DNA from: Bryobacteraceae bacterium
GTDB taxonomy: Bacteria > Acidobacteriota > Terriglobia > Bryobacterales > Bryobacteraceae
NCBI GenBank assembly: GCA_025056865.1
Contig: JANWVO010000038.1
Coordinates: forward strand, 175,587 to 239,586
Direction of reading: 5' to 3'
DNA length: 64,000 bases
Shown: in pieces, positions 3,165 to 15,742 of the stretch
Layout of the letters: the number at the start of each line of letters is the position of its first letter
How positions within the stretch are numbered: the stretch's first letter is position 1
The notes under the pieces: generated by a model
Databases searched by the model: none
What the model was told of the DNA's origin: nothing
What the model saw: only the letters and a program-made list of their open reading frames with translations
Translations under genes and position numbers: made by a program

Positions 3165-4025
3165 ATGCCATCATCTCTGAACTGGATGGACTGGAAGCCA
3201 TTGCTGATCATTCTGGCCACCTGGGTGATGCTTTCCTGGCTGGCTCACCGTTCCGTTTTCCTCCCCATGAAGTACCCTGCTGGCGAATGGCAGGAAGCCC
3301 ATGCCCTGGGCGTGGAGGAGGTCAAGTTGCCGAGCGGCGGCTTCCGAATCCACGGCTGGTGGAAGCCGATCCCCGGAGCGCAGGCAGCCGTCCTGTTCCT
3401 CCACGGCAATGCAGGCAATGTGAGCCACCGGGGAAGGCACATCCGCGCCTGGCAGCAGGCAGGCGCCTCGATCCTTGTGCCCGATTGGCGCGGCTACGGG
3501 AAAAGCGAAGGAAGCCCCAGTGAATCAGGACTTTACGAAGATGCGCTGGCGGGCTATGAGTTCCTTCGCCGCCGCGGCTTCCCGCCGGAGCGGATCCTGG
3601 TTCATGGCGAGTCGCTGGGGACCGTGGCGGCAGCCGATGTGGCGGCACGGCAGCCGGTGGCGGGGCTGATCCTGGAAGCGCCCTTCCCCTCGGCGCGCGC
3701 CGTGGCGCAGACGCTGTTGCCGCTGCTGGGTCCAATGCTGATCTGGGGCTATGACCTGCGCAGCCGGCTGCGGCAGGTGCGGGCGCCGGTGCTGGTGATT
3801 CATGGCGACCGGGACGAGGTGATTCCCTTCCGGCTCGGGCGGGCGGTCTTTGAGGCCGCCAACGAGCCGAAGGAGTTCTGGATTGTGCCGGGCGCGGGGC
3901 ACAATGACCTGCCGGAGACAGCGGGCTGGGACTACCCGCAGCGGCTGAGACGATTTCTGCAAACGGCGCTTGAGTCCCGGGCGGTTCGATCCGCCGCAGC
4001 TCCCGGCGGATCCGGTGCGCCCTGA
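3165..4025 (+). CDS. Alpha/beta-fold hydrolase (BAAT/DLH-like serine hydrolase) with N-terminal membrane anchor
   Basis: Lower part of ORF 2820..4025. The upstream part overlaps dnaK antisense, so I take the ATG at 3165 (MPSSLNWMDWKPLLIILATWV, a hydrophobic anchor). Motifs: HGNAG, the GESLG nucleophile elbow, HGDRDEVIP, GAGHND. Confidence 0.8.
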   Translation: MPSSLNWMDWKPLLIILATWVMLSWLAHRSVFLPMKYPAGEWQEAHALGVEEVKLPSGGFRIHGWWKPIPGAQAAVLFLHGNAGNVSHRGRHIRAWQQAGASILVPDWRGYGKSEGSPSESGLYEDALAGYEFLRRRGFPPERILVHGESLGTVAAADVAARQPVAGLILEAPFPSARAVAQTLLPLLGPMLIWGYDLRSRLRQVRAPVLVIHGDRDEVIPFRLGRAVFEAANEPKEFWIVPGAGHNDLPETAGWDYPQRLRRFLQTALESRAVRSAAAPGGSGAP

Positions 4026-4302
4026 ACCTCCCGCCCGGCCGGCGCTGACGGCTGGCTGCGTCCGCGCGGGCGCGCCAAGGCTCTTTCCCGGCGGATGGGG
4101 GCGATTCAGTTCCGCATCCGCCACAGGGAGGTTGCGATTCAGGATGACCCGCCCCACCGGCTCCCGCCTCTGGATCCGCCTGCGCGTCCCTCGTCCGGCC
4201 CCCCGCGTCCGGCAGCTCCCGTGCTTTCTTGCCATGCGCGGCTCTGGCCGGCACGGAGAGCGGAAAGCCAGCCCGAGGCGCTGTCTTGAAACTGCCGCAG
4301 CC

Positions 4303-4788
4303 TCAGTCTGCGCTCTTGCGGAAAACGGCGATGGCCTCGATTTCCACCAGCAGCTCCGGGCGGCACAGGATGGCCTGGATGCCGGTGGAGGCAGGCAGCG
4401 GGTCGAGACCCTGCTCCTGGTAGAAGCGGGTGCGCTCTTCGTTGAACGCCTCGTAGTCGCGCTCGATGTCGCGCAGGTAGCAGGTGGTGCGGACGACGTC
4501 TTTCCAGGTGGCGCCTTCGCTGGCCAGCAGCCCGGTGATGTTGTGGAACGTCCGGCGCACCTGGGCGCGGAAGTCGCCGATGTGCACGCTGCGGCCGTGC
4601 TCGTCGATGGAGGCCGTGCCGCTGATCAGCAGCACGACGATGTTGCCGAACTCCAGCCGGATGCCGCGGGAGAAGGAGCTGGGCTTTGCGTACTGGTAGG
4701 CCTCGTTGAGGACCTGCGGATTCGAGATGGCCTTTTTCTCGATGGAAACGGCCTTCGCGGCTTCGGCCAGAGCTTCTTCGAGCCTCAT
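4303..4788 (-). CDS. YjgF/RidA-fold (Rid superfamily) protein
   Basis: Internal ATG at 4788, preceded by GGAGG (MRLEEALAEA...). Its start overlaps the upstream stop as ATGA. The ISGTASI motif and the C-terminal YLRD...F and VEIEAIAV segments are typical of the YjgF/L-PSP fold. Subfamily (RidA versus FkbO/Hyg5-like) is not resolved. Confidence 0.8.
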   Translation of the reverse strand: MRLEEALAEAAKAVSIEKKAISNPQVLNEAYQYAKPSSFSRGIRLEFGNIVVLLISGTASIDEHGRSVHIGDFRAQVRRTFHNITGLLASEGATWKDVVRTTCYLRDIERDYEAFNEERTRFYQEQGLDPLPASTGIQAILCRPELLVEIEAIAVFRKSAD

Positions 4789-5798
4789 GATGGAGAAACC
4801 TCCTGCAAAAAGACGGATGAAATGGAACGCCTGCCGGTGGAACCGAAGCGGCTGGCGAGCCGCTCCCGCACGGCAGGCCGGTTCGGCCCGGCTGCCTGAA
4901 TGCATTCTAACAACAGGGCCGTAGACTCATAGGCGAGCTGGAAGAATACGTCGCCTGAAACCTGGAAACGGGCCTCGCCGTCGCGAAGCAGCGCCGCGTC
5001 GGGCGTGGCGAGCGCGGGGGCAAGGACCGGCCTGCGAAGCTGTCCGCGGCAGGCCCGCGACCACGCCGACGGGCCGCAGAAGACCTCGGCGTCCCCGGGA
5101 AGCTCCGCCACGGCGCGACAGAGCGGCGCCGGCGGGGCGAGAACGACGACCACCGGGTGAGAGGGCGCAGGCGGGCGGTTCGGCGGCTGGAAGTCGTGCC
5201 GCTCCGCGGGCTGGAGGGTGCGGCTGAGCACGCGCGCCAACTGGCGCGAGCCGTGGTCGGTGGCGGCCAGCAGCGAGTAGGGCCTGCGGCCGATGGCGCC
5301 GGCGATGGCGCGCGCCAGCAGCGAATCGCCCGGAGCCCAGGAGAAGATCCACGGCACGAAAGCGGCGTTGGCCGTTTCGTCCGTGGAGACGGGATCCACC
5401 ATCGGAAACAGCGCCTTGGCGGCCACCTGTTCTGCCAGGTGCGTGGTGGCGCTGTCGATGCCGCCGACCAGGGCGACAATGCGGTCTTCGAAGGCGAGCT
5501 TCGCCACGGCGGAGGCCCCGGCCCGCCACGGATCGTCCGACCAGCGGGAGAAGAGCCGGAACGGCCTGTCCTCCCCGGACAGGCGGGCGTTGGCGTGCTC
5601 GATGGCCAGAGCGACGCCCATGTAGACCGTGCCACCGGCCGGATGGCGGGGATCGTCCGGACCGAAAAAGCCCAACGGCACGTAATCCAGCTCCCCGGCG
5701 CCGGTCTGCGGCAGCTCGCCGGGCTGTGCGGGCGCACGCCGCCGGTCGATGTACGGCGCCGCCGCCTGCACAGCCAGGAAATGCCGCCGCGTGATCAT
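4785..5798 (-). CDS. Type-1 periplasmic binding protein (LivK/Peripla_BP_6-like), second copy, divergent
   Basis: 337-aa ORF. N-terminus MITRRHFLAV has a twin-arginine-like motif. The core (GVALAIEHANARL...IVALVGGIDSATT...AKALFPMVDPVSTDE) resembles the N-lobe of Leu/Ile/Val-type binding proteins. Confidence 0.65.
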   Translation of the reverse strand: MITRRHFLAVQAAAPYIDRRRAPAQPGELPQTGAGELDYVPLGFFGPDDPRHPAGGTVYMGVALAIEHANARLSGEDRPFRLFSRWSDDPWRAGASAVAKLAFEDRIVALVGGIDSATTHLAEQVAAKALFPMVDPVSTDETANAAFVPWIFSWAPGDSLLARAIAGAIGRRPYSLLAATDHGSRQLARVLSRTLQPAERHDFQPPNRPPAPSHPVVVVLAPPAPLCRAVAELPGDAEVFCGPSAWSRACRGQLRRPVLAPALATPDAALLRDGEARFQVSGDVFFQLAYESTALLLECIQAAGPNRPAVRERLASRFGSTGRRSISSVFLQEVSPS

Positions 5799-5799
5799 C

Positions 5800-7275
5800 T
5801 CACTTCGTTTCGGCAGGGTTCAGCAGGCCGCGGGCGGTGCGCTCGCGCGGCGGGACGTAGCCGCGCGGAATGCCAAGGTCTTCGCGCGAGTAGTAGCGCC
5901 AGCGGCCGCCTTCGAACTTCGCCAGATACACCTCTCCGGCGTCGTCGAGCACGGCGGAGAAGGGGATGTCGCCCGTCACGCCGGGCCACGGTTTGGAGCG
6001 CGTGGCCAGGATGTCGCGGATCTTGGCGCGGTTGAGTCCAGCCACCTGGATGGCCCAGATCAGCATGTTCATGCCGTCGTAGGCGTGGGCGGCGTAGGTA
6101 TCCGGCTCGTCGTTGAAGCGCTTGCGGAAGCGCTCGCGGAACTCGGCCAGCCGCGGGTTGCTGGAATCCGGGTTCCAGGGAAAGCCGGCGATGACGCCCT
6201 CGGCGTGCGGCCCGGCGATCTGGAGGAACTCCTTCGACACGGCCCGGTCCGAGGTGAGAAACGGCTGGTTCAAGCCGCGCTCGCGGAGCTGTTTCAGGAT
6301 GATGGCCGCTTCGCGCGCGTCGCCCCAATGCACGATCACGTCGGGCTTGACCTCGGCGATGCGGTCGATCTGGAGCGAGTAGTCGTCCTGGCCGAGCTTG
6401 TAGGCCATCTCGATGACGACCGGGCGGCCAAGACGGCGGGCCGAGTCGCGGATCTCGCGCACGCCGAAGCGGCCATAGCGGTTGGAGGCGCGGATGATAG
6501 CGATGCGCCTGTAGTCCATCTTGCGGATCATGTAGTCGACCATGAGATAGCCCATCTGGCGGTCGTCGCCGATGCAGCGCATCGTCCAGGGGATGTTGGT
6601 CTCGATGTAGGTGGGGTCGGTGTCGCCCGTGTTCATCACCACGACCTCGGCCTTCAGGGCGACGCGGATGGCGATGTGGGAGTTGGCGCCGTCGATGGTG
6701 CCGAGGATGGCCCAGACCTTGTCCTTGTAGGCGAAGTTGACGATCTCGTTGCCGCTCGAGCCCCAGAGGCCGTTGTCGTTGGTGACCACCAGCTCGAAGG
6801 GGATCCTGCGCCGCAGGTAGCCGCCTTTGGCGTTGGCCTCCTCAATGGCGAGACGCGCGCCCTGGAGCATCTTGATGCCCATCGGCTCCTCGTGGCTGGC
6901 GCCGCCGGTGGCGATGGAGACGGTGCTCATGATGGGGCCGATGAAGCCGATCTTGACGGTCTTGACGTCCTCGGGCTCGGGGATGGCGCGCCCCGGCCCG
7001 TTGTACTGCATCTGCTCGAGGAAGTGCTCCTTGTAAGGCTTGATCTTGCCGTAGGGTTCGTAGTCGATGGGTGTTTTCGCGTAGGACGTCTCGCGCCGCA
7101 GCCGTAGGTCGGGCACCTCGTACGGCCCGACCGAGTTGATCCGGCGGAGCACCTCGAGCGTGTCCTCGTCGACTTCGACGCCGGGAGGCACCAGCGGCTC
7201 GTTGGCAGGCGGCTTCCTGGGCGCGTCGGAGGCGAACAGCACGGTGGCGGCAAGCAGAGGAAGAAGGCGTCTCAT
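5800..7275 (-). CDS. ABC-type substrate-binding protein, LivK/branched-chain amino acid (Peripla_BP_6) family, orphan
   Basis: 491-aa ORF with a signal peptide (MRRLLPLLAATVLFA). KIGFIGPI...GARLAIEEANAKGG...WAILGTIDGANSH...DTYAAHAYDGMNMLIWAI are typical of type-1 PBPs of the amino-acid/amide family. Confidence 0.85.
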   Translation of the reverse strand: MRRLLPLLAATVLFASDAPRKPPANEPLVPPGVEVDEDTLEVLRRINSVGPYEVPDLRLRRETSYAKTPIDYEPYGKIKPYKEHFLEQMQYNGPGRAIPEPEDVKTVKIGFIGPIMSTVSIATGGASHEEPMGIKMLQGARLAIEEANAKGGYLRRRIPFELVVTNDNGLWGSSGNEIVNFAYKDKVWAILGTIDGANSHIAIRVALKAEVVVMNTGDTDPTYIETNIPWTMRCIGDDRQMGYLMVDYMIRKMDYRRIAIIRASNRYGRFGVREIRDSARRLGRPVVIEMAYKLGQDDYSLQIDRIAEVKPDVIVHWGDAREAAIILKQLRERGLNQPFLTSDRAVSKEFLQIAGPHAEGVIAGFPWNPDSSNPRLAEFRERFRKRFNDEPDTYAAHAYDGMNMLIWAIQVAGLNRAKIRDILATRSKPWPGVTGDIPFSAVLDDAGEVYLAKFEGGRWRYYSREDLGIPRGYVPPRERTARGLLNPAETK

Positions 7276-8426
7276 TTGTCTTCCCTCCGGTTTTCGGCCA
7301 GCATGCGCGGGCGCTCGCGCAGGCCGGAGTAATAGCCTTCGCCGATGCCCCAGGCAAGGCCCTTGGCGGTGGCGACGAAGACGTCGCGGTCGTCGACGTC
7401 GATGGCGATGATGAAGTTGTGGGGCAGATTCAGCCCCATCTCGACCGTTTCGAGCACGGTCTTGTCGCGCGTGACGACGGCCTTGCCGGTGTCCGACTTC
7501 GGATCGCGCGTATAGGCGACCCAGGTGTTGGTCTCGGCGTCCATGATGGCGCCCAGCCCCTTGTCGGAGGCGAACCAGGCTTCGCGGCCGCTGCGGGCGC
7601 GGAGGTTGTTGTTGAAGTCCGAGGGCAGGCCGGAGTCCATGTTGTAAAAGCCGCGCCAGTTGCGGCCGTCATAGCGGGCCGCGCCGAAGTAGGAGGACAC
7701 CCAGATGACGCCGTCGACGTAGTTGGCGCCGGTGGTGATGACGTGGATGATGCCGTCGTCGCGGTACAGGTCGATCTCCATCTCGCCGTCGGGGTCGAGA
7801 TAGTCTTTCCAGCGGTTGGTCTTCACGTCGTACTCGAGCACGCCGGAGCCCCAGACGGCCAGGTGGACCTTGCCGTCGCGGTAGTGCACGCCGTAGTTCC
7901 AGATCTCTTCCATCGGCGCGTTCTTCTCGGTGAAGATGGTCCACTCGCCGGTGACGGTGTTGAAGCGGGAGGCGCCGGCGGTGGTGGCGGCCCAGACATT
8001 GTCATTTTCGACGGCGACGCCGTAGACGACGTCGTTGACGAGGCCCGAGTTGAGCTGGTGCCAGTGGTCGAAGCGGCCGCCGCTGAGGCGGGCGAGCCCG
8101 CCGCCGAACAGGCCCAGCCAGACGTCGCCCGTCTTCGGGTCGACGTCGATGGCGGTGACCACGCGCCAGGGCAGCCCGTCCTTCTCCGTCCAGACCTTCA
8201 CTACCCTGGCGGTCTTCTTGTCGATGAGCGCGAGGCCGTTTTCGGTGCCCACCCAGATGCGGTCGCCGTCGCTCTTGACGGCGAAGATGTGGTCGTCGGG
8301 CAGGCCGTCCTTGACCGTGAACTGCTTCCACTTCGTGTAGACATAGGGCAGCTTCTCGGCGCCCGGCTCGGCAGCCAGGGCGCATGCGAGGGCAAGCAGG
8401 AGCAGGCAAGAGGCAGCGTGTCTCAT
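7272..8426 (-). CDS. Secreted stand-alone beta-propeller protein (two-component-regulator-propeller/Reg_prop-like repeats)
   Basis: 384-aa ORF with a signal peptide (MRHAASCLLLLALACALA). It has repeated GLPxD/N..V..I..D..G.iWvGT-type blades (DGLPDDHIFAVKSDGDRIWVGTENGL, DGLPWRVVTAIDVD...VWLG, SGLVNDVVYGVAVENDNVWAAT). ATGA overlaps at both ends. Confidence 0.7.
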   Translation of the reverse strand: MRHAASCLLLLALACALAAEPGAEKLPYVYTKWKQFTVKDGLPDDHIFAVKSDGDRIWVGTENGLALIDKKTARVVKVWTEKDGLPWRVVTAIDVDPKTGDVWLGLFGGGLARLSGGRFDHWHQLNSGLVNDVVYGVAVENDNVWAATTAGASRFNTVTGEWTIFTEKNAPMEEIWNYGVHYRDGKVHLAVWGSGVLEYDVKTNRWKDYLDPDGEMEIDLYRDDGIIHVITTGANYVDGVIWVSSYFGAARYDGRNWRGFYNMDSGLPSDFNNNLRARSGREAWFASDKGLGAIMDAETNTWVAYTRDPKSDTGKAVVTRDKTVLETVEMGLNLPHNFIIAIDVDDRDVFVATAKGLAWGIGEGYYSGLRERPRMLAENRREDK

Positions 8427-11224
8427 AGCGTTTTCAGAAACTCGATCAGGTCGTTGAGCTGATCCTTGGTCATGTCGTTGGTGACCCCGTGCTTGTCGTA
8501 CGGGTTGTACACGGTCCAGATCTCTTCGAGCGTTTTCGCCATCCCGTTGTGCAGGTAGGGCGCGGAATCGTAGATGTTGTTCAGGTGCGGGACATCGAAC
8601 AGCCCGGTGCGGTCGAGCGCCTGTCGGGTGCCGACATCAAAGCGGCGGCGGTTGGTGTAGTAGGGCGCCGGGTGGCAGAAGTAGCAGCGGCCTTCGGGCG
8701 GGATGAGCCTTCCGTCGTTGGTGTGCGTGCGGTAAAAAAGATCTTTGCCGCGGCGCTGCGCCGGCGTGTAGCGCGTGCCGGGCGTGTAGTAGCGGTTGGG
8801 CGGGCGGCGGATGGTGCTGATGTAGTAATCGACGGCGTCCAGCTCTTCGGGCGTGAACGGCAGGTTGCGGGTGAAGAAGACCGAGAGCCGCGCGCCGCAC
8901 TGCCGCTTGAGCGAGGGGTTGGTGCCCTCCCACTTGAACGGCGCGGTGTCGCCGATGCCGCGCAGCGTGCGGTTGTCCACCGGAGAGACGCCGATGCCGT
9001 CCGGCTCGATGTCATACGTAATGCCGTCCACATGGCCGTCGGGATGGCAGGAGTGGCAGGAGTACTGGTAGCGGAAGGTGATCTTCGCGTTGTGGAACAG
9101 TTTCTCGCCCCAGCGCTGCCTGGTGATCTCCTTCGGACCGTTCAGGGAGATCTTGCCGGCCATTTCCAGAGTGGCCAGGTCGATGACGCCGATGGAGTCA
9201 TCGAGGCAGTTGGCGACGTAGGCGCGGCGGCCGTCGGGCGAGATGGCAAGACCGCGGGGGCTGTCTGCGGTCTCGAGGGTCTTGACCAGGAACTCGGCGG
9301 CCTTGCCCAGATGGTTGGGCAGCACGTGCTGCCGCTCGTGGTCGGAAGCGCCCGTGAGCAGCCGTTCCAGGCGCGCCAGGTCGACCACCGCGATGCGGTT
9401 GGTTCCTGAGCTCGTGACCAGCGCGTAGCGGTTGTCCGGCGTGATGCGGACGTCGGTGGCGTCGGCGAAGCCGAGGCCCGGCTGATCCAGCAGCACCTGA
9501 TCGGTGCGCCCGTCGGGCCAGATGATGGCGATGCCGTTGGTGATGGTCCAGCCCTGCAACAGGCGCGTCATCGGCACCAGGTTCTTGGTCCGGTTCATGG
9601 TGGCGATGGCGAAGCGGCCGTCGCGGCGCCAGTCGATGCCCATCATGAGGTTGGTGCCATCGATAAGCCAGCGGTCGCGCACGCGCGCCGTCCGGGCGTC
9701 GATGACCGTCAGCTCGCTCGCCAGCGGCTTGCGGAAGCCGGTGAGGTTGGAATACATGCTGGTGACGAAGATGGTGGCGCCGTCCGGGGCGAGCGCAGCC
9801 TCCCAGGGGCCGCGGCCGGCGGCGAGCTTCTTTTCGAAGGCGAGCGTGCGGGCGTGGAAGACGTGGATGTCCTCCGAGGACGTGTTCAGCACGAGCACGT
9901 GTTCATCGCCCGGCGTGACGATGACGCCGTGGGGCTCGTCGCCGACGCGGAGCGTGTCCACCACCTTGCGGGCGGCGGCGTCGATGACGGTGACGGTGTC
10001 GTCCTCGCGGTTGGTGACGAAGGCGCGGCGGCCGTCGCTTGTGAAGGCGATGCCCGTAGGCTCGCCGCCGGTGCGGATCTCGGCCAGCACCCGCCTTGTG
10101 CGCGTGTCGACGACGGCGACGGCATCGGCGGCGGCCAGCGTCGCCCAGAGCTCGCCCGTGCCGGGACGGAAGGCGAGCCGCAGCGGGTTCTTGTAGCGGA
10201 CCTCCGCTTTCCGCTCGGGCAGTTTCGTCGGGTGCGCGATCAGCTTCCAGGCTTCGGCCGCGTTGAACGTCCGGCCGTGAGCGGGGTTGTGGCAGCTCAT
10301 GCAGTCGGCCAGCGAGCCGCGCTTCAGGCCGGCGGCGCGCGCCGCCTCGGGGTCGCGCATGATCGCGTCGGTGGCATAGTTCTTTCCCGGGCCGTGGCAG
10401 GCCTCGCAGCCGACGCCTTCTTCGGTGCGGCCGCCGACGGCGTGGCAGCGGAGGCAGGCCGGGCTGTGCTGGGGATCGCCCTCCACTTTCATCTCGCGCG
10501 CCAGCTCGGCGGCGCGCGGCGTGGCCAGCACCGCCCAGGCGCGCGCATGCGGGCTGCGCCGCCAGACGTCGTACTGATGGCCGTGATCGAGGCCGTTGTG
10601 GCAGGAGCCGCAGGCCGCGGATCCGATCACGCCGGGCGCGTCCGCTTCGCGGATGGCGCCCACGCGGGACGGCTTCGGCAGCGGATGCGCGATCTGCTTC
10701 CATGCCTCGTCGATGTTGACCGTGGGGTTCTTCAGCACGGCGATATGCGAGCCCTTCTCGAGATGGCAGACGAGGCAGTCATCGCGGGTGGGCATGCGCA
10801 GGCCGGCCGCCATCGCCGCCTTGCGGTCGCGCATCACCGCTTCGGTGGCATACTCGCTGCCCGGCCCGTGGCAGGCTTCGCATTGCAGGCCATCTTCGCG
10901 GCGGAACGTTTCGGGATCCATCTCGCGTTCGTCGGCGCCGAACGCGGTGGAATGGCATCCGAGGCAGATGGCGGCCTTCCAGGGCTCTTCGCGCAGGCCG
11001 CTGATGCGCGCGATTTCCCAGGATTCCGGCCGCGACAGCGCCGCATACGCCTGGGCGTGCTTCGACAGCAGCCACCTACTGTACTGGTGGCCCATGCCGG
11101 GGCCGTTGTGGCAGGTGGCGCATACGCGCGAGCCGACGTAAACAGGCTTCGGCGGCGCCCCGCGGGAGATGAAGACGAGCGGCGCCAGCGCGGCCGCCGC
11201 CATGATCCATGCGACCCTTCTCAC
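8423..11224 (-). CDS. Multiheme cytochrome c (8 CxxCH, c554-like) fused to a YVTN beta-propeller and a di-heme cytochrome c peroxidase/MauG-like domain
   Basis: Lower part of ORF 8423..11776; the upper part overlaps the preceding gene. Proposed start is the GTG at 11224 (GTGA overlap), giving MRRVAWIMAAAALAPLVFI, a signal peptide. The alternative is the ATG at 11203. Ten CxxCH motifs: CATCH, CLGCH, CEACH, CLVCH, CGSCH, CLRCH, CEACH, CMSCH, CHSCH, CYFCH. YVTN-like repeats include TGIAFTSDGRRAFVTNREDDTVTVID. The C-terminus (PHLNNIYDSAPYLHNGMAKTLEE) is typical of the CCP/MauG family. Confidence 0.85.
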   Translation of the reverse strand: MRRVAWIMAAAALAPLVFISRGAPPKPVYVGSRVCATCHNGPGMGHQYSRWLLSKHAQAYAALSRPESWEIARISGLREEPWKAAICLGCHSTAFGADEREMDPETFRREDGLQCEACHGPGSEYATEAVMRDRKAAMAAGLRMPTRDDCLVCHLEKGSHIAVLKNPTVNIDEAWKQIAHPLPKPSRVGAIREADAPGVIGSAACGSCHNGLDHGHQYDVWRRSPHARAWAVLATPRAAELAREMKVEGDPQHSPACLRCHAVGGRTEEGVGCEACHGPGKNYATDAIMRDPEAARAAGLKRGSLADCMSCHNPAHGRTFNAAEAWKLIAHPTKLPERKAEVRYKNPLRLAFRPGTGELWATLAAADAVAVVDTRTRRVLAEIRTGGEPTGIAFTSDGRRAFVTNREDDTVTVIDAAARKVVDTLRVGDEPHGVIVTPGDEHVLVLNTSSEDIHVFHARTLAFEKKLAAGRGPWEAALAPDGATIFVTSMYSNLTGFRKPLASELTVIDARTARVRDRWLIDGTNLMMGIDWRRDGRFAIATMNRTKNLVPMTRLLQGWTITNGIAIIWPDGRTDQVLLDQPGLGFADATDVRITPDNRYALVTSSGTNRIAVVDLARLERLLTGASDHERQHVLPNHLGKAAEFLVKTLETADSPRGLAISPDGRRAYVANCLDDSIGVIDLATLEMAGKISLNGPKEITRQRWGEKLFHNAKITFRYQYSCHSCHPDGHVDGITYDIEPDGIGVSPVDNRTLRGIGDTAPFKWEGTNPSLKRQCGARLSVFFTRNLPFTPEELDAVDYYISTIRRPPNRYYTPGTRYTPAQRRGKDLFYRTHTNDGRLIPPEGRCYFCHPAPYYTNRRRFDVGTRQALDRTGLFDVPHLNNIYDSAPYLHNGMAKTLEEIWTVYNPYDKHGVTNDMTKDQLNDLIEFLKTL

Positions 11225-12873
11225 TGCGCCTTCCTCCGCGCTTCCGCCTTGTGGCGGAGCCTGAGAACCTGATTGGCCCGCACTCCGGCGAGCTTTTCCA
11301 CCACGCCGTCCGGCCAGCGGATCTCGACGTCGCACACCGTGGCTCCGCCCAGCCCGAAATGGAGCCGCGGATCGCCCTGCCCGAGATAACCGCGGACCGG
11401 GTTGACATCCTCCACCATGCGCAGCCCGTTGGCCGCCACCGTCACGCGCGCGCCCACCGCCGTGCGCGAGCCGGTGGGGAAGTCCAGGCGCGCATCCACC
11501 ATCAGCCAGGGACGCGCGTTGCCGCCGTCGTTGCGCAGCAGCACCGGCGCGTCGTTGAGGTTGACTACCAGCAGGTCGATGTCGCCATCGTTGTCCATGT
11601 CGGCCCAGGCGGCGCCGCGGCCGACGCGCTTGGTTTCGAAGTAAGGCCCGGCTTCGCGCGAAACGTCTTCGAAGGTGCCGTTCTGCCGGTTGCGGCTGAG
11701 GCTGTCCTCCTGCACGTACTCGTGGTGCGCGTGGCCGTGGACGGTGAACAGGTCCAGCCAGCCGTCGTGATCCCAATCGAACATCACCGAGCCCCAGCCG
11801 GCGTACTGGCCGAGCAGCGGCGCCAGGCCGGCGGCGTCGTTGAGGTTTTCAAAGAAGCCCTTCTTCGGGTTGTAGACGAAGAGCGACACATAGTTGAGGT
11901 TCGGCACGAACAGGTCCAGCCAGCCGTCGCGGTTGACGTCGCCGTAAAACGGGCCCATCGACGCCACGCCCTGGCCGTGCTCGCTGAAGGCCAGCTCGAA
12001 CTCGAGGCCCTTCTCCGAGAACGTGCCGTCGCCGTTGTTGAGGAAGAAGTAATTCTCCATCGCGTCGTTCGACGTGAACACGTCCATGCGGCCGTCGTTG
12101 TTGAAGTCGGCGGCGGTAACGCTCATGGCGCGCCCGCCCGGCCTCCACATGCCGGCCTCTTTGGTGACATCGGTGAAGGTGCCGTCGCCGTTGTTGCGGT
12201 AAAGGATGCTGGGCAGGCCCTGGTAGCTGAGCGGGCCCGGGTAGCCCTGCGCCGGGTAGAAGTCGCGGAACTTGCCGTCGTCGTACAGCAGATAATTGGC
12301 GACGTAGACGTCCAGCCAGCCGTCGTTGTTGTAGTCGAACCACACGGCATGGAGCGACCAGCGGGCGTCATCGAGGCCGGACTGCTTCGAGACGTCGGTG
12401 AAGGTGCCGTCGCCGTTGTTGCGGTAAAGGATGTTCGGCCCGTAGTTGAGCACGTACAGGTCGACGTCGCCGTCGTTGTCGTAGTCGGCGGCGGAGCAGC
12501 CGGAGCCGTAGACCTTGCTGGCCACGCCGGCCTTTTCGGTCACGTCCTCGAACTTCCCGCCGCCGAGGTTGCGGTAGAGGCGGTTGGAGAGCCTGCCGCG
12601 GAGATCGCGCCCGTCGTTGTCGCTGACGCCTTTGGTCCAGACGCCGGTGACGAAGTAGATGTCCTGAAGCCCGTCGTTGTCGAAATCGAAGAAGCAGGCG
12701 CCGGCTCCCGTGCCTTCGACGATGTTGTCCAGCTTGTGGTCGCCGATGCTGTGGCGGAAGCGGATGCCCGCCGCTTCAGTAATGTCGCTGAACACAGGCC
12801 CGCGCGGCGGAGCCGAAGCGGCCGCCGCCAGCGCCGCCGCCAGCACGGCAGCGTGTCCCACGAGCGCTCTCAT
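11221..12873 (-). CDS. CRTAC1-family protein: FG-GAP/VCBS repeats with C-terminal ASPIC/UnbV domain
   Basis: 550-aa ORF with a signal peptide. It has multiple D.DNDG..D repeats (FDFDNDGLQDIY, ADYDNDGDVDLY, FDYNNDGWLDVY, ADFNNDGRMDVF, DVNRDGWLDLF, DWDHDGWLDLF, DMDNDGDIDLL). The C-terminal GARVTV...RGYLGQGDPRLHFGLG is typical of UnbV_ASPIC. Confidence 0.88.
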   Translation of the reverse strand: MRALVGHAAVLAAALAAAASAPPRGPVFSDITEAAGIRFRHSIGDHKLDNIVEGTGAGACFFDFDNDGLQDIYFVTGVWTKGVSDNDGRDLRGRLSNRLYRNLGGGKFEDVTEKAGVASKVYGSGCSAADYDNDGDVDLYVLNYGPNILYRNNGDGTFTDVSKQSGLDDARWSLHAVWFDYNNDGWLDVYVANYLLYDDGKFRDFYPAQGYPGPLSYQGLPSILYRNNGDGTFTDVTKEAGMWRPGGRAMSVTAADFNNDGRMDVFTSNDAMENYFFLNNGDGTFSEKGLEFELAFSEHGQGVASMGPFYGDVNRDGWLDLFVPNLNYVSLFVYNPKKGFFENLNDAAGLAPLLGQYAGWGSVMFDWDHDGWLDLFTVHGHAHHEYVQEDSLSRNRQNGTFEDVSREAGPYFETKRVGRGAAWADMDNDGDIDLLVVNLNDAPVLLRNDGGNARPWLMVDARLDFPTGSRTAVGARVTVAANGLRMVEDVNPVRGYLGQGDPRLHFGLGGATVCDVEIRWPDGVVEKLAGVRANQVLRLRHKAEARRKAQ

Positions 12874-14204
12874 TTCGAACCTCCGTTGGATATCCAGGCC
12901 GGAGCGGTCAGCTTCACCGGCTTGCGGATCAGCGCCTTCGCCTCGCGGTTCTCCGGCGTCAGCTCGGGATCCTCATGGCAGCCGATGCAGCCGCGGTTCT
13001 CCTTTGGCCGGGTATACATCCAGGCCGAAGTCCGCACGGCGCGGCCCGCCGCGTCCGCAAGCTCCAGCTTCAGCGGCGTGTTGGGGGGCACCTCCAGGTG
13101 GAAGGAGCCGTCGTCCTCGATGCGCAGGTCTCCGATCTTGCGGGGGTTGTCGAACGGAGCCGTGTACACGCGCAGCCGCCATGCCTGGCCCGGACGGATC
13201 CGCTCCGGCTGATCGGTGGTGAAGACGCTGAGGCAGTAGAGCCGGCTCCAGCCGGCGCCTTCCTCCACCACGGATCCGCGGCCTTCCGGCTCGGGGCGGG
13301 CGATTACCGGCCGCGCCTGCCGCAGGTCCGACCCGGGTTTCACATAAACGGGAACTTTTGTTTTATTCGCGGGATGGAAACGGTAGATGCCCGCCGGCGT
13401 CCGGGCATCCGGCTGCCAGCTCACCAGCAGGCGCCCGCCGGGCAGCCCCGCCGGCGTGGAAAAGATGCCGTCGGAGGGGCGCGTCAGCTCGCGGCGCGTG
13501 CGCAGCGGGCGGATGAGATCCACGCTGGCCAGCACGCCCTCGCCGTCGACGAAGACGAGCCTGCCGTCCATCGTCACCGCAGGCTCGCGGAGCTTCTCGC
13601 CGGGCAGATAGAGCGAATAGTCCGTGCCGTCCAGGTTCACGGCCATGATCTGCGAACGCCCGCCCTGCCGGGAGGCGAACACCATCATGCCGTCGGGCAG
13701 CATGGTGGCGTCGGACTCCTGCCACGGCGTGAAAGTGATGCGCTGCCGCAGCGTGCCGTCGAATTTCACCGTGTGCAGCGCTCCGCCGCAGAAGAAGGCC
13801 GCCTGCGGCCAGGGATCGGGAATGTCCAGGCTGAAGATCTTCGACTGGTAAGCGGGCCGGCGGCAGTCGCTGGCCATCTTCGTCAACTGCCGGACGGCGC
13901 CGGTGGCGAGCGTCATCTCGTAGATCTGCCACGGCTCCGCAGCGGTCTTCTTTCCGGCGAACAGGATCCGCTTCGCATCCCAGGAAACATCGGGATCAGC
14001 GGCGGCGAAGAAGCCCTGGCTGAGAAGGCGGACGGCGCCGGAAGCCTCCAGCAGCAGGAGGCGCGGCTGGCCGCCGGGCGGGGTCTCGGTGAACACAATC
14101 GGGTGGCGTCCGCCGCCAGACGGCGCGGGCGCGCCCGCCACGGCCGGTGCGAGCACGGAGAGAGCGAGAATACAGGACCGGAAAATCCTCTTTAAGACCC
14201 GCAC
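12870..14204 (-). CDS. PD40/TolB-like beta-propeller protein with a C-terminal single heme c-binding motif
   Basis: 444-aa ORF, GTG start, signal peptide (MRVLKRIFRSCILALSVLAPAVAGA). PD40-like blades (DPDVSWDAKRILFAGKK...WQIYEMTLATG; MLPDGMMVFASRQ...SQIMAVNLDG). The C-terminal beta-sandwich-like segment ends in RPKENRGCIGCHEDPE. Confidence 0.7.
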   Translation of the reverse strand: MRVLKRIFRSCILALSVLAPAVAGAPAPSGGGRHPIVFTETPPGGQPRLLLLEASGAVRLLSQGFFAAADPDVSWDAKRILFAGKKTAAEPWQIYEMTLATGAVRQLTKMASDCRRPAYQSKIFSLDIPDPWPQAAFFCGGALHTVKFDGTLRQRITFTPWQESDATMLPDGMMVFASRQGGRSQIMAVNLDGTDYSLYLPGEKLREPAVTMDGRLVFVDGEGVLASVDLIRPLRTRRELTRPSDGIFSTPAGLPGGRLLVSWQPDARTPAGIYRFHPANKTKVPVYVKPGSDLRQARPVIARPEPEGRGSVVEEGAGWSRLYCLSVFTTDQPERIRPGQAWRLRVYTAPFDNPRKIGDLRIEDDGSFHLEVPPNTPLKLELADAAGRAVRTSAWMYTRPKENRGCIGCHEDPELTPENREAKALIRKPVKLTAPAWISNGGSK

Positions 14205-14291
14205 TGAAGTCAGTCTATGGGCAACCCGGTCCGGATGCCAATCCGCGCAGGATATTACTGGGAACCGATTAGAAAAAACTGCGCAACCCGG

Positions 14292-14475
14292 TCAGCAGGC
14301 CCCGCACTCCCTCAGCGTGCGGCTTCCCCGTGGGTCGCGGGTCCGGCCAAGGATCAGCATGAGCCGGATGCCCGCCCTGGCGGCGTGGAGCGAGTCGGCG
14401 AACAGGACGCCGCGCTGGCGGAGGCCGCGGCCGCTTCCTTCAACGCCGGAGAGATCGGGCGGGCGGCCAATGGCG
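14292..14475 (-). pseudogene. Duplicated, diverged 3' fragment of the adjacent L-asparaginase gene
   Basis: About 184 nt align without gaps to 14482-14665 (the real 3' end) at roughly 80-85 percent identity by my hand count. The fragment translates to ...GSGRGLRQRGVLFADSLHAARAGIRLMLILGRTRDPRGSRTLRECGAC*, versus the real ...GSGHDLRQRGVLFAGTLNAAKARIRLMLILGRTSDPREIRTLMECGAY*. I found no start codon at its upstream end. Confidence 0.7.
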
Positions 14476-14481
14476 TAGGGT

Positions 14482-15465
14482 TCAGTATGCTCCGCACTCC
14501 ATCAGCGTGCGGATCTCCCTCGGGTCGCTGGTGCGGCCAAGGATCAGCATGAGCCGGATGCGCGCCTTGGCGGCATTGAGCGTGCCGGCAAACAGGACGC
14601 CGCGCTGGCGGAGATCGTGGCCGCTTCCTTCGTAGCCGTAGATATCGAGCACGCGGCCGTGGGCGCAGCGCGTGGCGATGACGACGGGGATGCCCGCATC
14701 CAGGGCGCGCTGAATGGCGGGCACGGCCTGCGGGGTGACGTTGCCGCGGCCGGTGCCCTCCACGACGATGCCGCGGGCGCCGCTTTCCCGCGCGAAGTCG
14801 ATGAAACGGCCGTCGGCGCCGGCGCACATCGTCACCAGGTCGACCCGCGGCTCCAGGCGCGGGGCGTCGATCACGATGCGGTCCACCAGGCGGCGGCCGA
14901 AGATCACGCGGTCCACGTCCACCAGCCCCAGCGGACCGAACACGGGGCTTTGGAAGGTCTCCAGTTGCTGCGTGTCCGTCTTGGTGGCTTCGCTGGCGGC
15001 GTGGATCATCTGGTTCAGCACGACGAACACGCCCTGGCCGCGTGCCTGCGGACTCAGCACCGTGCGGATGGCCGCCGAGAGATTCGCCGGGCCGTCAAAG
15101 CCCGGCTCGTTCACCGTGCGCATCGCGCCCACCACCGCCACCGGCTTCGGCGACGTGTGGCGCAGGTCCAGCAGGTAGGCCGTTTCCTCCAGCGTGTCCG
15201 TGCCGTGGGTGACCACTGCGCCCGTAATGTCCTTGCGCCCGATCTCCCGGCGCAGGATCTCGCTGACCTCCCACATCCGTTCCAGGGTCATGTGGGGGCC
15301 GGGATAGCGGCCGTATTCGAAGACTTCGAGATCGGCGAGCTGCTGGAGGGCGGGGTCGTGCTCGAGCAGCTCCCGCGCGCCCAGCGCAGGAACCGCAGCG
15401 CCGACCTGCGGATCGAACCGCATGCCGATGGTTCCGCCGGTAAACAGGATAAGCACGCGCGCCAT
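14482..15465 (-). CDS. ansA: L-asparaginase (type I/archaeal-bacterial family)
   Basis: ORF 14482..15549. I prefer the ATG at 15465, preceded by GGGAG. MARVLILFTGGTIGM and VTHGTDTLEETAY are the two asparaginase signature regions. Confidence 0.9.
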   Translation of the reverse strand: MARVLILFTGGTIGMRFDPQVGAAVPALGARELLEHDPALQQLADLEVFEYGRYPGPHMTLERMWEVSEILRREIGRKDITGAVVTHGTDTLEETAYLLDLRHTSPKPVAVVGAMRTVNEPGFDGPANLSAAIRTVLSPQARGQGVFVVLNQMIHAASEATKTDTQQLETFQSPVFGPLGLVDVDRVIFGRRLVDRIVIDAPRLEPRVDLVTMCAGADGRFIDFARESGARGIVVEGTGRGNVTPQAVPAIQRALDAGIPVVIATRCAHGRVLDIYGYEGSGHDLRQRGVLFAGTLNAAKARIRLMLILGRTSDPREIRTLMECGAY

Positions 15466-15742
15466 GGCAACTCCCATTGTGCTCCCGATCGCAGCCGGGC
15501 GGATGGGGCCGCGCACCTCCGCCAGCCGGCGTCTGCGTATCGGCGCCATAAAAAATATCGATTTGTATTCTTTAGCTAGGCGGGAGCATACTTAAGCCTG
15601 AATCTGGAGCATCCCCCGCCAGCGCGGGACTGCGCAGTCCTGTCACACTGTCCCGCTCCCTCCGGATTCGTGCCTGGCCCGGCAGCAGTGTCGCATCGCC
15701 GGCGGGCGTGGAACCTGACCCGCAACAACCAGGAGTAAACCG

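Follow-up and report, generated by a model that had tools for sequence, protein, structure and literature searches.

A short, single-haem HzsA-related protein encoded at the head of a hydrazine-synthase-like gene cassette in a Bryobacteraceae bacterium

A lone c-type haem motif near the C-terminus of a propeller protein raises two questions: to which family does such a protein belong, and what might its haem do? We addressed these for an ORF on the minus strand of a 64,000-nucleotide stretch of Bryobacteraceae DNA (hereafter the window), which an earlier note had described as TolB/PD40-like blades followed by a beta-rich segment ending in a single CIGCHE. The ORF and its quoted C-terminal sequence are as described there. 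It starts with GTG, encodes 444 aa, has a codon bias typical of coding sequence (GC3 0.86) and contains one CxxCH in the whole chain, with 34 residues between His410 and the stop. No clear Shine-Dalgarno was found before the GTG, and support for this start is the conservation of the N-terminus, in an 87%-identical homolog only. From its N-terminus the chain comprises a probable signal peptide, a propeller of the TolB/PD40 type, a beta-sandwich and the single CIGCH, and we were able to place the following features:

12870..14204, minus strand: alpha-like gene encoding an HzsA-related protein, short single-haem form (ORF, Pfam HZS_alpha, PDB 5c2v_A, Foldseek, NCBI naming).
14136..14204, minus strand: probable Sec signal peptide, residues 1-23, MRVLKRIFRSCILALSVLAPAVA before G (basic n-region, hydrophobic core, AxA).
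13305..14108, minus strand: beta-propeller of the TolB/PD40 type spanning roughly residues 33-300, a homolog of the HzsA N-terminal propeller (HMMER, model, TolB matches).
12972..13169, minus strand: HZS_alpha middle domain, residues 346-411 (Pfam match; beta-sandwich ending at the haem motif).
12948..13001, minus strand: family signature E-x-R-G-C-I-G-C-H-E-D-x-E-x-x-P-x-N, residues 402-419 (invariant columns; homolog survey).
12975-12989, minus strand: CIGCH haem c attachment site, C406-I-G-C-H410 (translation).

The AlphaFold2 model of the protein (pLDDT 85.4, pTM 0.80) has a predicted helix at residues 3-17 followed by residues 18-31 at low confidence, and the propeller region is modelled as all-beta with pLDDT >90.

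The earlier note had suggested a resemblance to the middle domain of HzsA, the alpha subunit of anammox hydrazine synthase (HZS), as found in non-anammox proteins. This holds, and we found that the homology to HzsA extends beyond the middle domain to span the whole protein, propeller included. The Pfam model HZS_alpha (PF18582), run as had been proposed, matched residues 346-411 with 63.6 bits (E=2.5e-17; curated gathering cut-off 26.6 bits), ending at the CxxCH, and it is single-copy in the host genome. Against the PDB, phmmer with the single sequence recovered 5c2v_A (HzsA) in three stretches (E=2.9e-18) and a family profile did so at E=1.3e-47. The HMMER stretches of the propeller align to 5c2v_A residues 31-131 and 216-394, and the middle domain aligns, with the family profile, to 497-577. 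The Foldseek search likewise proposed, run with the AlphaFold2 model, put 5c2v_A at the top (E=1.3e-25, query TM 0.78); the propeller and middle-domain fold of HzsA (kuste2861; PDB 5C2V/5C2W chain A; NF052339) is shared. When aligned by MAFFT with ten true HzsA, the protein showed about 29% identity over 437 columns, and its CxxCH fell on HzsA C583-x-x-C586-H587...Y591; by position, the CIGCH site corresponds to that of haem alpha-I in the anammox enzyme. Additionally, the Cys152-Arg-x-Pro-x-Tyr motif of HzsA is also present, and a Paludibaculum homolog, 49% identical, is named 'HzsA-related protein' by NCBI.

The earlier note would have taken a lack of conservation of the CxxCH motif in orthologs as a refutation. 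The motif is in fact conserved: all 120 of the 120 homologs, the most distant at about 39% identity, carry GC[IV]GCHE. A 25-sequence alignment contains 13 invariant residues around it (E402, R404, G405, C406, I407, G408, C409, H410, E411, D412, E414, P417 and N419), and the H+4 position is Glu in 118 of 119 homologs. Since the motif is kept in every homolog and its surroundings are invariant, CIGCH is not a chance occurrence. Cytochrome c maturation is encoded in the host genome (three Cytochrom_C_asm matches), and for the HzsA-related family we infer covalent haem attachment, complex formation and catalysis.

The alpha-like gene is the first of a tightly packed minus-strand gene run in which start and stop codons overlap between genes, in line with the earlier note, which had called it the first gene of an operon. 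A promoter scan of 4000-14700 gave one weak site at 14241-14212 (9/12 matches), no more than in shuffles, and terminator-like sites in the same interval were at background level. The genes downstream of the alpha-like gene are listed here with the number of related loci in which each recurs:

11221..12873, minus strand: FG-GAP / ASPIC-UnbV (CRTAC1-type) protein, second gene (Pfam); immediately follows the alpha-like gene in 79/80 loci.
8423..11203, minus strand: decahaem fusion of two c554-like tetrahaem modules, an HzsB-like YVTN propeller and an HzsC-like dihaem domain; 73/80 loci.
7272..8426, minus strand: 384-aa 'two-component regulator propeller' protein, fourth gene (Pfam Reg_prop; PDB 4a2l_A 7e-27); 68/80 loci.
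5800..7275, minus strand: LivJ/Peripla_BP_6-type binding protein, fifth gene; 66/80 loci.
4785..5798, minus strand: second, shorter Peripla_BP_6-type binding protein, sixth gene; 65/80 loci.
4303..4905, minus strand: Rid/YjgF (L-PSP) family protein, seventh gene (longest ORF); neighbour in 46/80 loci.

The true start of the Rid gene may be an ATG overlapping the previous stop near 4788. The 80 related loci come mostly from Bryobacterales and Planctomycetota. The order alpha-like, FG-GAP, beta-gamma was observed in 73-79 of them, and the longer order through the fourth-gene propeller and the two binding proteins is kept, in different species, in 65-79. Where the Rid homolog adjoins the cassette, it lies on one of two sides: beyond the binding-protein genes, or immediately upstream of the alpha-like gene. 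Identity across the loci ranges over 34-84% for the alpha-like protein, 56-91% for FG-GAP and 63-94% for the fourth-gene propeller, the alpha-like protein being the least conserved in the cassette. All cassette products appear to be exported.

The decahaem partner is itself related to hydrazine synthase. It matches the NCBIfam model hydrazine_BC with 181 bits, as well as hydrazine_beta and hydrazine_gamma, and in the PDB it matches 5c2v_B (1e-28) and 5c2v_C (8.6e-16). Its translation contains ten CxxCH motifs, a number shared by 55 of the 66 complete partner ORFs, and the Cytochrome_C554 Pfam model matches it twice. The equivalent of gamma-Cys165 is kept (KRQC-G aligns with DRVC-G), and Trp stands at the position of gamma-His144 (FKWEG aligns with FRHEG).

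The TolB/PD40-like character of the blades, noted earlier, was borne out by matches to TolB chains (E about 5e-7) and to TIGR02800 (6e-7), and TolB was next after HzsA among the Foldseek matches. With TolB matches at E about 1e-7, the protein could be taken for a TolB-like or peptidase-associated PD40 propeller whose CxxCH is incidental and binds no haem. However, these matches are restricted to the propeller, with a TM of 0.49 versus 0.78 for HzsA, the TIGR02800 score is 28.7 bits versus a cut-off of 343, the CxxCH is invariant, and cytochrome partners are encoded in 73 of the 80 loci, so that we give such a propeller next to no credence. TolB shares the six-bladed PD40-type propeller fold, but it has neither a haem domain nor cytochrome partners, and its match covers part of the chain. 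TolB identity was rejected on the 28.7 versus 343 bits and on the neighbours, which are cytochromes and propellers with no tol-pal genes.

The alpha-like protein is not a hydrazine synthase. On the hydrazine_alpha equivalog model NF052339 it scores 80.2 bits versus a cut-off of 800, compared with 1518-1606 bits for 17 Planctomycetota loci encoding true HzsA. In HZS, Tyr591 is the proximal ligand of haem alpha-I and a Zn site is formed by His587 and Cys303 (PMC12607021, PMC12758564); Cys303 is not universal even among anammox bacteria (PMC12758564). Checking the haem alpha-I ligands, as the earlier note had proposed, we found the CxxCH His to be invariant and neither Tyr591 nor Cys303 to be kept. 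The HzsA-related family has an invariant Glu or a deletion at the Tyr591 position (HMMER and MAFFT agree in placing Glu414 at H+4), and 110 of 119 homologs have no Tyr within 12 residues after the motif His. Cys303 sits in an HZS-only insertion, YGNC(P/D)xEIGG, which every family member lacks in the MAFFT alignment. The C-terminal bis-His haem alpha-II domain is also absent, HzsA being about 810 aa long versus 444 aa here. Further differences from HzsA are the H-E-D-x-E cluster, which is specific to the family of the alpha-like protein, and the operon position of the gene.

Homologs of all three HZS subunits are nevertheless encoded together, and the partner keeps the third Cys that binds haem gamma-I covalently, as would be expected if the protein were truly the alpha subunit of a hydrazine synthase and the host made hydrazine via an unrecognised anammox-like metabolism. 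We hold this to be extremely improbable given the low score on NF052339, the replaced or deleted Tyr591, the Cys303 insertion without counterpart in the family and the missing alpha-II domain. In the partner, additionally, gamma-His144 is replaced by Trp and gamma-Asp168 aligns with Arg; the order of genes is opposite to that of anammox operons, and hydrazine synthesis was rejected in the published analysis (PMC12758564). The anammox enzyme was ruled out as a candidate by bit score and active-site residues.

Hagglund et al. (2025, Genome Biol Evol) have described this cassette as the 'clade I' HZS homologs of non-anammox bacteria, defined by an alpha-like gene upstream of FG-GAP (CRTAC1) and then a fused beta-gamma gene (PMC12758564). 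We observe the same order in the window, together with eight additional N-terminal haem motifs (two c554 domains) in the beta-gamma protein, a haem alpha-I CxxCH that persists without Tyr591 and Cys303, the equivalent of gamma-Cys165 together with Trp at gamma-His144, and two binding-protein genes downstream. Because of this published cassette and the NCBI name, the protein belongs to the already described HzsA-related, or clade I, type, and its gene probably codes for the alpha-type subunit in a periplasmic cassette of that clade, one for a multihaem enzyme resembling hydrazine synthase. It differs in having no second (alpha-II-like) haem site, which is found in most members; the published analysis reports that site missing in clades II and III and in one clade I member only (PMC12758564), and since absence is thereby allowed within clade I, we treat the site as a variable feature that does not exclude membership. 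The published account has a few anaerobes as carriers and makes no mention of the conserved fourth-gene propeller or the Rid gene (PMC12758564), whereas we found a motif-bearing homolog in at least 543 species-representative genomes, mainly of Bryobacterales and Planctomycetota. Both groups are abundant in soils and peat. Our search of the literature on HZS_alpha, PF18582 and hzs-like genes returned comparative genomics only and no functional study.

The alpha-like proteins come in two forms. Among 79 sampled loci, 64 encode a long form and 15 a short form without the alpha-II-like domain, all of the latter among the closest, Bryobacterales-type relatives; most family members carry an extra class-I-like cytochrome domain. 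The short and long forms share otherwise identical cassettes, which indicates that the alpha-II-like domain is dispensable in the HzsA-related family. A lone terminal haem, which had been called unusual for a propeller protein, is not so within the family: 65 of the 119 closest homologous proteins have it, as do 15 of the 79 species-representative loci.

What the alpha haem does can be approached through HZS, in which haem alpha-I is a proposed active site to which a tunnel leads from gamma-I, and haem alpha-II, with no role known for it, lies too far from the other hemes for electron transfer (PMC12607021). The latter accords with an alpha-II-like domain that the cassettes can do without. By homology, the alpha-like protein would assemble with the co-encoded decahaem c554x2-HzsB-HzsC fusion, whose eight c554-type haems and gamma-II-like haem would deliver electrons to, or withdraw them from, a gamma-I-like catalytic haem. 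In that arrangement the alpha haem would be a second, electronically isolated site that binds or converts a small molecule, as alpha-I does in HZS, with no wire link. Since the HZS-specific features are missing, it most probably has His410 as its ligand in the usual manner, and the invariant acidic cluster H-E-D-x-E may form a family-specific site adjoining it. That part of the earlier suggestion which has the haem catalytic rather than a wire is a reasonable reading by homology, because haem alpha-I is a proposed active site in HZS.

Alternatively, the haem could be an ordinary electron-transfer or entry haem, in which case the alpha-like protein would serve as redox partner or scaffold and catalysis would take place only in the decahaem, the FG-GAP or the fourth-gene propeller protein. 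The Tyr ligand and Zn site behind alpha-I catalysis in HZS are missing here, the published model of a homolog has a canonical haem c pocket (PMC12758564), the alpha-like protein evolves fastest within the cassette, and the additional class-I-like cytochrome domain of most family members is in keeping with such a role. However, the homologous HZS haem is far from the other hemes and outside the electron path (PMC12607021), the 13 invariant residues, four of them acidic (E402, E411, D412, E414), represent more constraint than is usual for a simple relay haem, and the alpha-II-like cytochrome domain is lost in short forms with the rest of the cassette unchanged. We therefore consider an electron-transfer haem unlikely and prefer the catalytic, isolated site. 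Two observations run counter to that preference: the lowest conservation in the cassette is unexpected for a main catalytic subunit, and with a canonical His ligand the alpha haem could equally be a six-coordinate electron-transfer haem. Additionally, the tunnel-loop glutamate of the beta subunit is not conserved in HZS-like homologs (PMC12758564), so tunnel coupling may not apply.

For the substrate of the catalytic site, the HZS homology, the two amino-acid-type binding proteins and the Rid protein in the cassette lead us to a tentative suggestion, somewhat short of an even chance: a small nitrogen-containing molecule, for instance NO, hydroxylamine, or an amine or amino-acid derivative. The link of the cassette to nitrogen compounds is circumstantial. 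Among nitrogen genes of the host genome NrfA is present, and searches there for NirK and Hcp found neither. A more elaborate and rather improbable proposal is that the cassette is a widespread soil-bacterial two-site haem enzyme performing tunnel-coupled nitrogen chemistry other than anammox. In such an enzyme NO or nitrite, for example, might be reduced to hydroxylamine at the gamma-I-like haem, and the alpha haem might be where hydroxylamine condenses with an amine or amino acid supplied by the orphan LivJ-type binding proteins; the N-N, oxime or imine product would then be processed by the exported Rid protein. The H-E-D-x-E cluster, with its Glu at the Tyr591 position, might bind a cationic co-substrate or a metal; the Glu might instead replace Tyr as an anionic haem ligand.

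Hydrazine synthase was, to our knowledge, long believed to be without relatives, and we know of no kin other than the HZS-like cassettes. These cassettes show which parts of the enzyme are older than anammox, namely the scaffold of propeller plus haem alpha-I, the fusion of beta with gamma and the third haem-Cys link, and which are anammox inventions, namely Tyr591 with the Zn site and the Cys303 insertion. The window contributes no new kind of system; it provides a clean, complete and single-copy case of the short single-haem alpha form and, together with the related loci, adds evidence for a dispensable alpha-II domain. Identifying the substrate of the cassette could bring to light a periplasmic redox reaction, so far unrecognised, in the turnover of nitrogen or carbon in soil.

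The earlier note described an open reading frame whose C-terminal part it likened to the middle domain of the alpha subunit (HzsA) of anammox hydrazine synthase (HZS). This resemblance was correct, because profile, sequence and fold searches all point to HZS alpha. The ORF, at 12870-14204 (-), has a GTG start, encodes 444 aa and is real, with a coding-type third-position bias (GC3 0.86) in a window of 64-72% GC; the C-terminal sequence quoted in the note agrees with its translation. Pfam HZS_alpha (PF18582) matches residues 346-411 (E=2.5e-17), and the hmmscan score of 63.6 bits lies well over the cut-off of 26.6. A single-sequence search of solved structures returned HzsA (5c2v_A) as the best match (E=2.9e-18), with three aligned stretches spanning the propeller and the middle domain, and a profile built from 25 sequences of the family strengthened the match to E=1.3e-47. 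The AlphaFold2 model built on the 25-member alignment is confident (pLDDT 85.4, pTM 0.80), and Foldseek against the PDB placed 5c2v_A first (E=1.3e-25, query TM 0.78), followed by TolB structures that cover the propeller part only (TM 0.49), in keeping with the TolB/PD40-like blades that had been proposed. Identity to true HzsA is ~29% across 437 columns, and the homology spans the whole chain. The N-terminal sequence of the protein, MRVLKRIFRSCILALSVLAPAVAG, looks like a Sec signal peptide; the model shows a helix here and then a linker of low confidence. The alpha-like protein is an exported protein that combines a propeller with a beta-sandwich and has a single conserved haem c attachment site, the homolog of haem alpha-I of HZS. 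The note's observation is confirmed and its interpretation supported.

The haem motif C406-I-G-C-H410 (window 12975-12989) is the only CxxCH in the protein, as had been noticed, and is followed by 34 residues after the His. GC[IV]GCHE is present in 120/120 of the best homologs, at identities down to ~39%, and the residue at His+4 is Glu in 118 of 119. In the 25-sequence alignment E402, R404, G405, C406, I407, G408, C409, H410, E411, D412, E414, P417 and N419 are invariant. The family has its own invariant acidic signature, E-x-RGCIGCH-E-D-x-E, which true HzsA does not have. Cytochrome c maturation proteins are encoded in the genome, which makes covalent haem attachment plausible.

Conservation of the alpha-I ligands, which the note had proposed to check, is partial: the CxxCH with its His is kept, but Tyr591 and Cys303 (HZS numbering) have no counterpart in the family. 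In HZS, His587 of the CxxCH swings out and, with Cys303, binds zinc; the iron ligand is Tyr591 (PMC12607021, PMC12758564). When we aligned the family with true HzsA from Planctomycetota (ten genes), Tyr591 fell opposite Glu414, which is invariant, and a gap of two residues came immediately after; in the alignment of Hagglund et al. the gap falls on Ser590 and Tyr591 (PMC12758564). As read from the alignments, the family has no Tyr at this position under either gap placement. Cys303 sits in an HZS-only insertion, YGNC(P/D)xEIGG, that is missing from all family members, and HzsA Cys152 (motif C-R-x-P-x-Y) is kept as C114.

The alpha-like gene heads seven co-oriented genes whose neighbouring starts and stops overlap or almost touch, as expected from the note's placing of it first in an operon. 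When one genome was scanned for each species, a relative was encoded in at least 543 of them, and in the best 80 loci we searched the neighbourhood by tblastn, counting genes found beside the alpha-like gene in the same order; absences are mostly at contig ends.

Genes of the cassette in the window, with the number of the best 80 loci that contain each neighbour.
12870-14204 (-), gene 1, alpha-like protein
11221-12873 (-), gene 2, FG-GAP/ASPIC (CRTAC1-type) protein; 79/80
8423-11203 (-), gene 3, decahaem protein with two c554-like tetrahaem modules, an HzsB-like propeller and an HzsC-like dihaem domain; 73/80
7272-8426 (-), gene 4, Reg_prop-type propeller protein, 384 aa; 68/80
5800-7275 (-), gene 5, LivJ/Peripla_BP_6 binding protein; 66/80
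4785-5798 (-), gene 6, shorter second binding protein; 65/80
4303-4905 (-), gene 7, Rid-family (Rid/YjgF) protein; 46/80, at either cassette end

Gene 4 encodes a protein classed as a 'two-component regulator propeller' (match to 4a2l_A in the PDB, E=7e-27). It is the most conserved cassette protein, with 63-94% identity across Acidobacteriota and Planctomycetota, whereas conservation is lowest for the alpha-like protein (34-84% in the best 80 loci). The Rid gene lies 3′ of the second binding-protein gene, as in the window, or immediately 5′ of the alpha-like gene (loci L012, L018, L019 and L021 among others). No ABC permease or ATPase gene accompanies the two LivJ-type binding proteins (4785-7275) in the window, and a promoter and terminator scan of the cassette region gave nothing above shuffled sequence. 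The 3′ end of the asparaginase gene (14482-15549) recurs as a direct copy of 187 nt in the intergenic region that immediately precedes the alpha-like gene (14292-14478 versus 14482-14668, 82% identity, offset 190 nt).

Most carriers belong to the Bryobacterales and Solibacteraceae (Acidobacteriota) or to the Planctomycetota (Pirellulales, Thermoguttaceae, Phycisphaerae); a Bryobacteraceae MAG has the closest relative (84% identity). Two loci labelled Arcobacter sp. (L002, L003; 74-75% identity), which are among the closest relatives, have the same cassette and flanking genes; the labels may reflect mislabelled or mis-binned MAGs, since the equally close L001 and L005 are labelled Bryobacteraceae. 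HZS_alpha occurs once in the window's genome. In one Planctomycetes MAG (G001, carrying L057) the hydrazine_alpha profile matches 37 places, mostly at profile positions ~510-590, the middle domain, within ORFs of 800-1500 aa, so the beta-sandwich is a much-reused module in Planctomycetota; PF18582 also scores above cut-off in the control genome of Bacteroides thetaiotaomicron.

A lone terminal haem, which the note considered unusual, is a regular variant within the family: this short form accounts for 65/119 of the closest proteins and 15/79 species-representative loci, all 15 falling among the nearest, Bryobacterales-type, relatives. Long forms (homologs P0048-P0120; loci L010-L080) add a C-terminal cytochrome domain of ~110-150 aa with CxxCH or Cx4CH, the latter (e.g. 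KCSNRACH) in 48/54 long proteins and 35/64 long loci. The remaining cassette is the same for both forms, and the alpha-II-like domain is therefore dispensable. This fits HZS, where haem alpha-II is beyond electron-transfer distance with no role assigned (PMC12607021).

The alpha-like protein is not a hydrazine synthase. It scores 80 bits on the NCBI equivalog hydrazine_alpha (cut-off 800), compared with 1518-1606 bits for true HzsA loci, found in 17/401 Planctomycetota genomes searched, and unlike HzsA it has no alpha-II domain. The decahaem protein keeps the third haem-binding Cys of HZS gamma, gamma-Cys165, but has Trp at gamma-His144, as in peroxidases and MauG, and Arg at gamma-Asp168.

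The alpha-like protein is co-encoded with HZS beta and gamma homologs, and we propose that it associates with the decahaem protein. In such a complex, electrons would pass to or from the catalytic gamma-I-like haem by way of the c554 modules and the gamma-II-like haem, and the alpha haem, probably with ordinary ligation by His410, would be a second small-molecule site outside this wire. In the main alternative, which we consider improbable, the alpha haem is instead an ordinary relay haem and the protein serves as a scaffold. Our tentative best guess for the substrate is a small nitrogen compound, given the homology together with the Rid protein and the amino-acid-type binding proteins. The window's own genome has a gene for a pentahaem NrfA-type nitrite reductase (contig C30:48165-49388, 447 bits); copper nitrite reductase (NirK) and hybrid-cluster protein (Hcp) were not found in it.

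The cassette has been described before, and the alpha-like protein joins a known, functionally uncharacterised family. Hagglund et al. (2025; PMC12758564) defined clades I and II, with an alpha homolog upstream of FG-GAP (CRTAC1) and fused beta-gamma genes. The beta-gamma protein of clade I has eight additional haems, which sit in two c554 domains. Two genes for binding proteins follow downstream, haem alpha-I and gamma-Cys165 are kept, Tyr591 and Cys303 are missing and Trp replaces gamma-His144; hydrazine synthesis by these homologs was judged impossible (PMC12758564). One clade I species is Paludibaculum fermentans (PMC12758564), whose homolog (NCBI name 'HzsA-related protein') shares 49% identity with the alpha-like protein. 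Dalcin Martins et al. (2023) proposed hzs-like genes as a broader enzyme family with other substrates (PMC10732223). Our analysis adds the distribution of short and long forms, the acidic signature and the relative conservation of the cassette products. It also identifies the fourth-gene propeller and the Rid gene, without mention in PMC12758564, as conserved cassette members, and shows that the family is much more widespread than 'a few anaerobes'.
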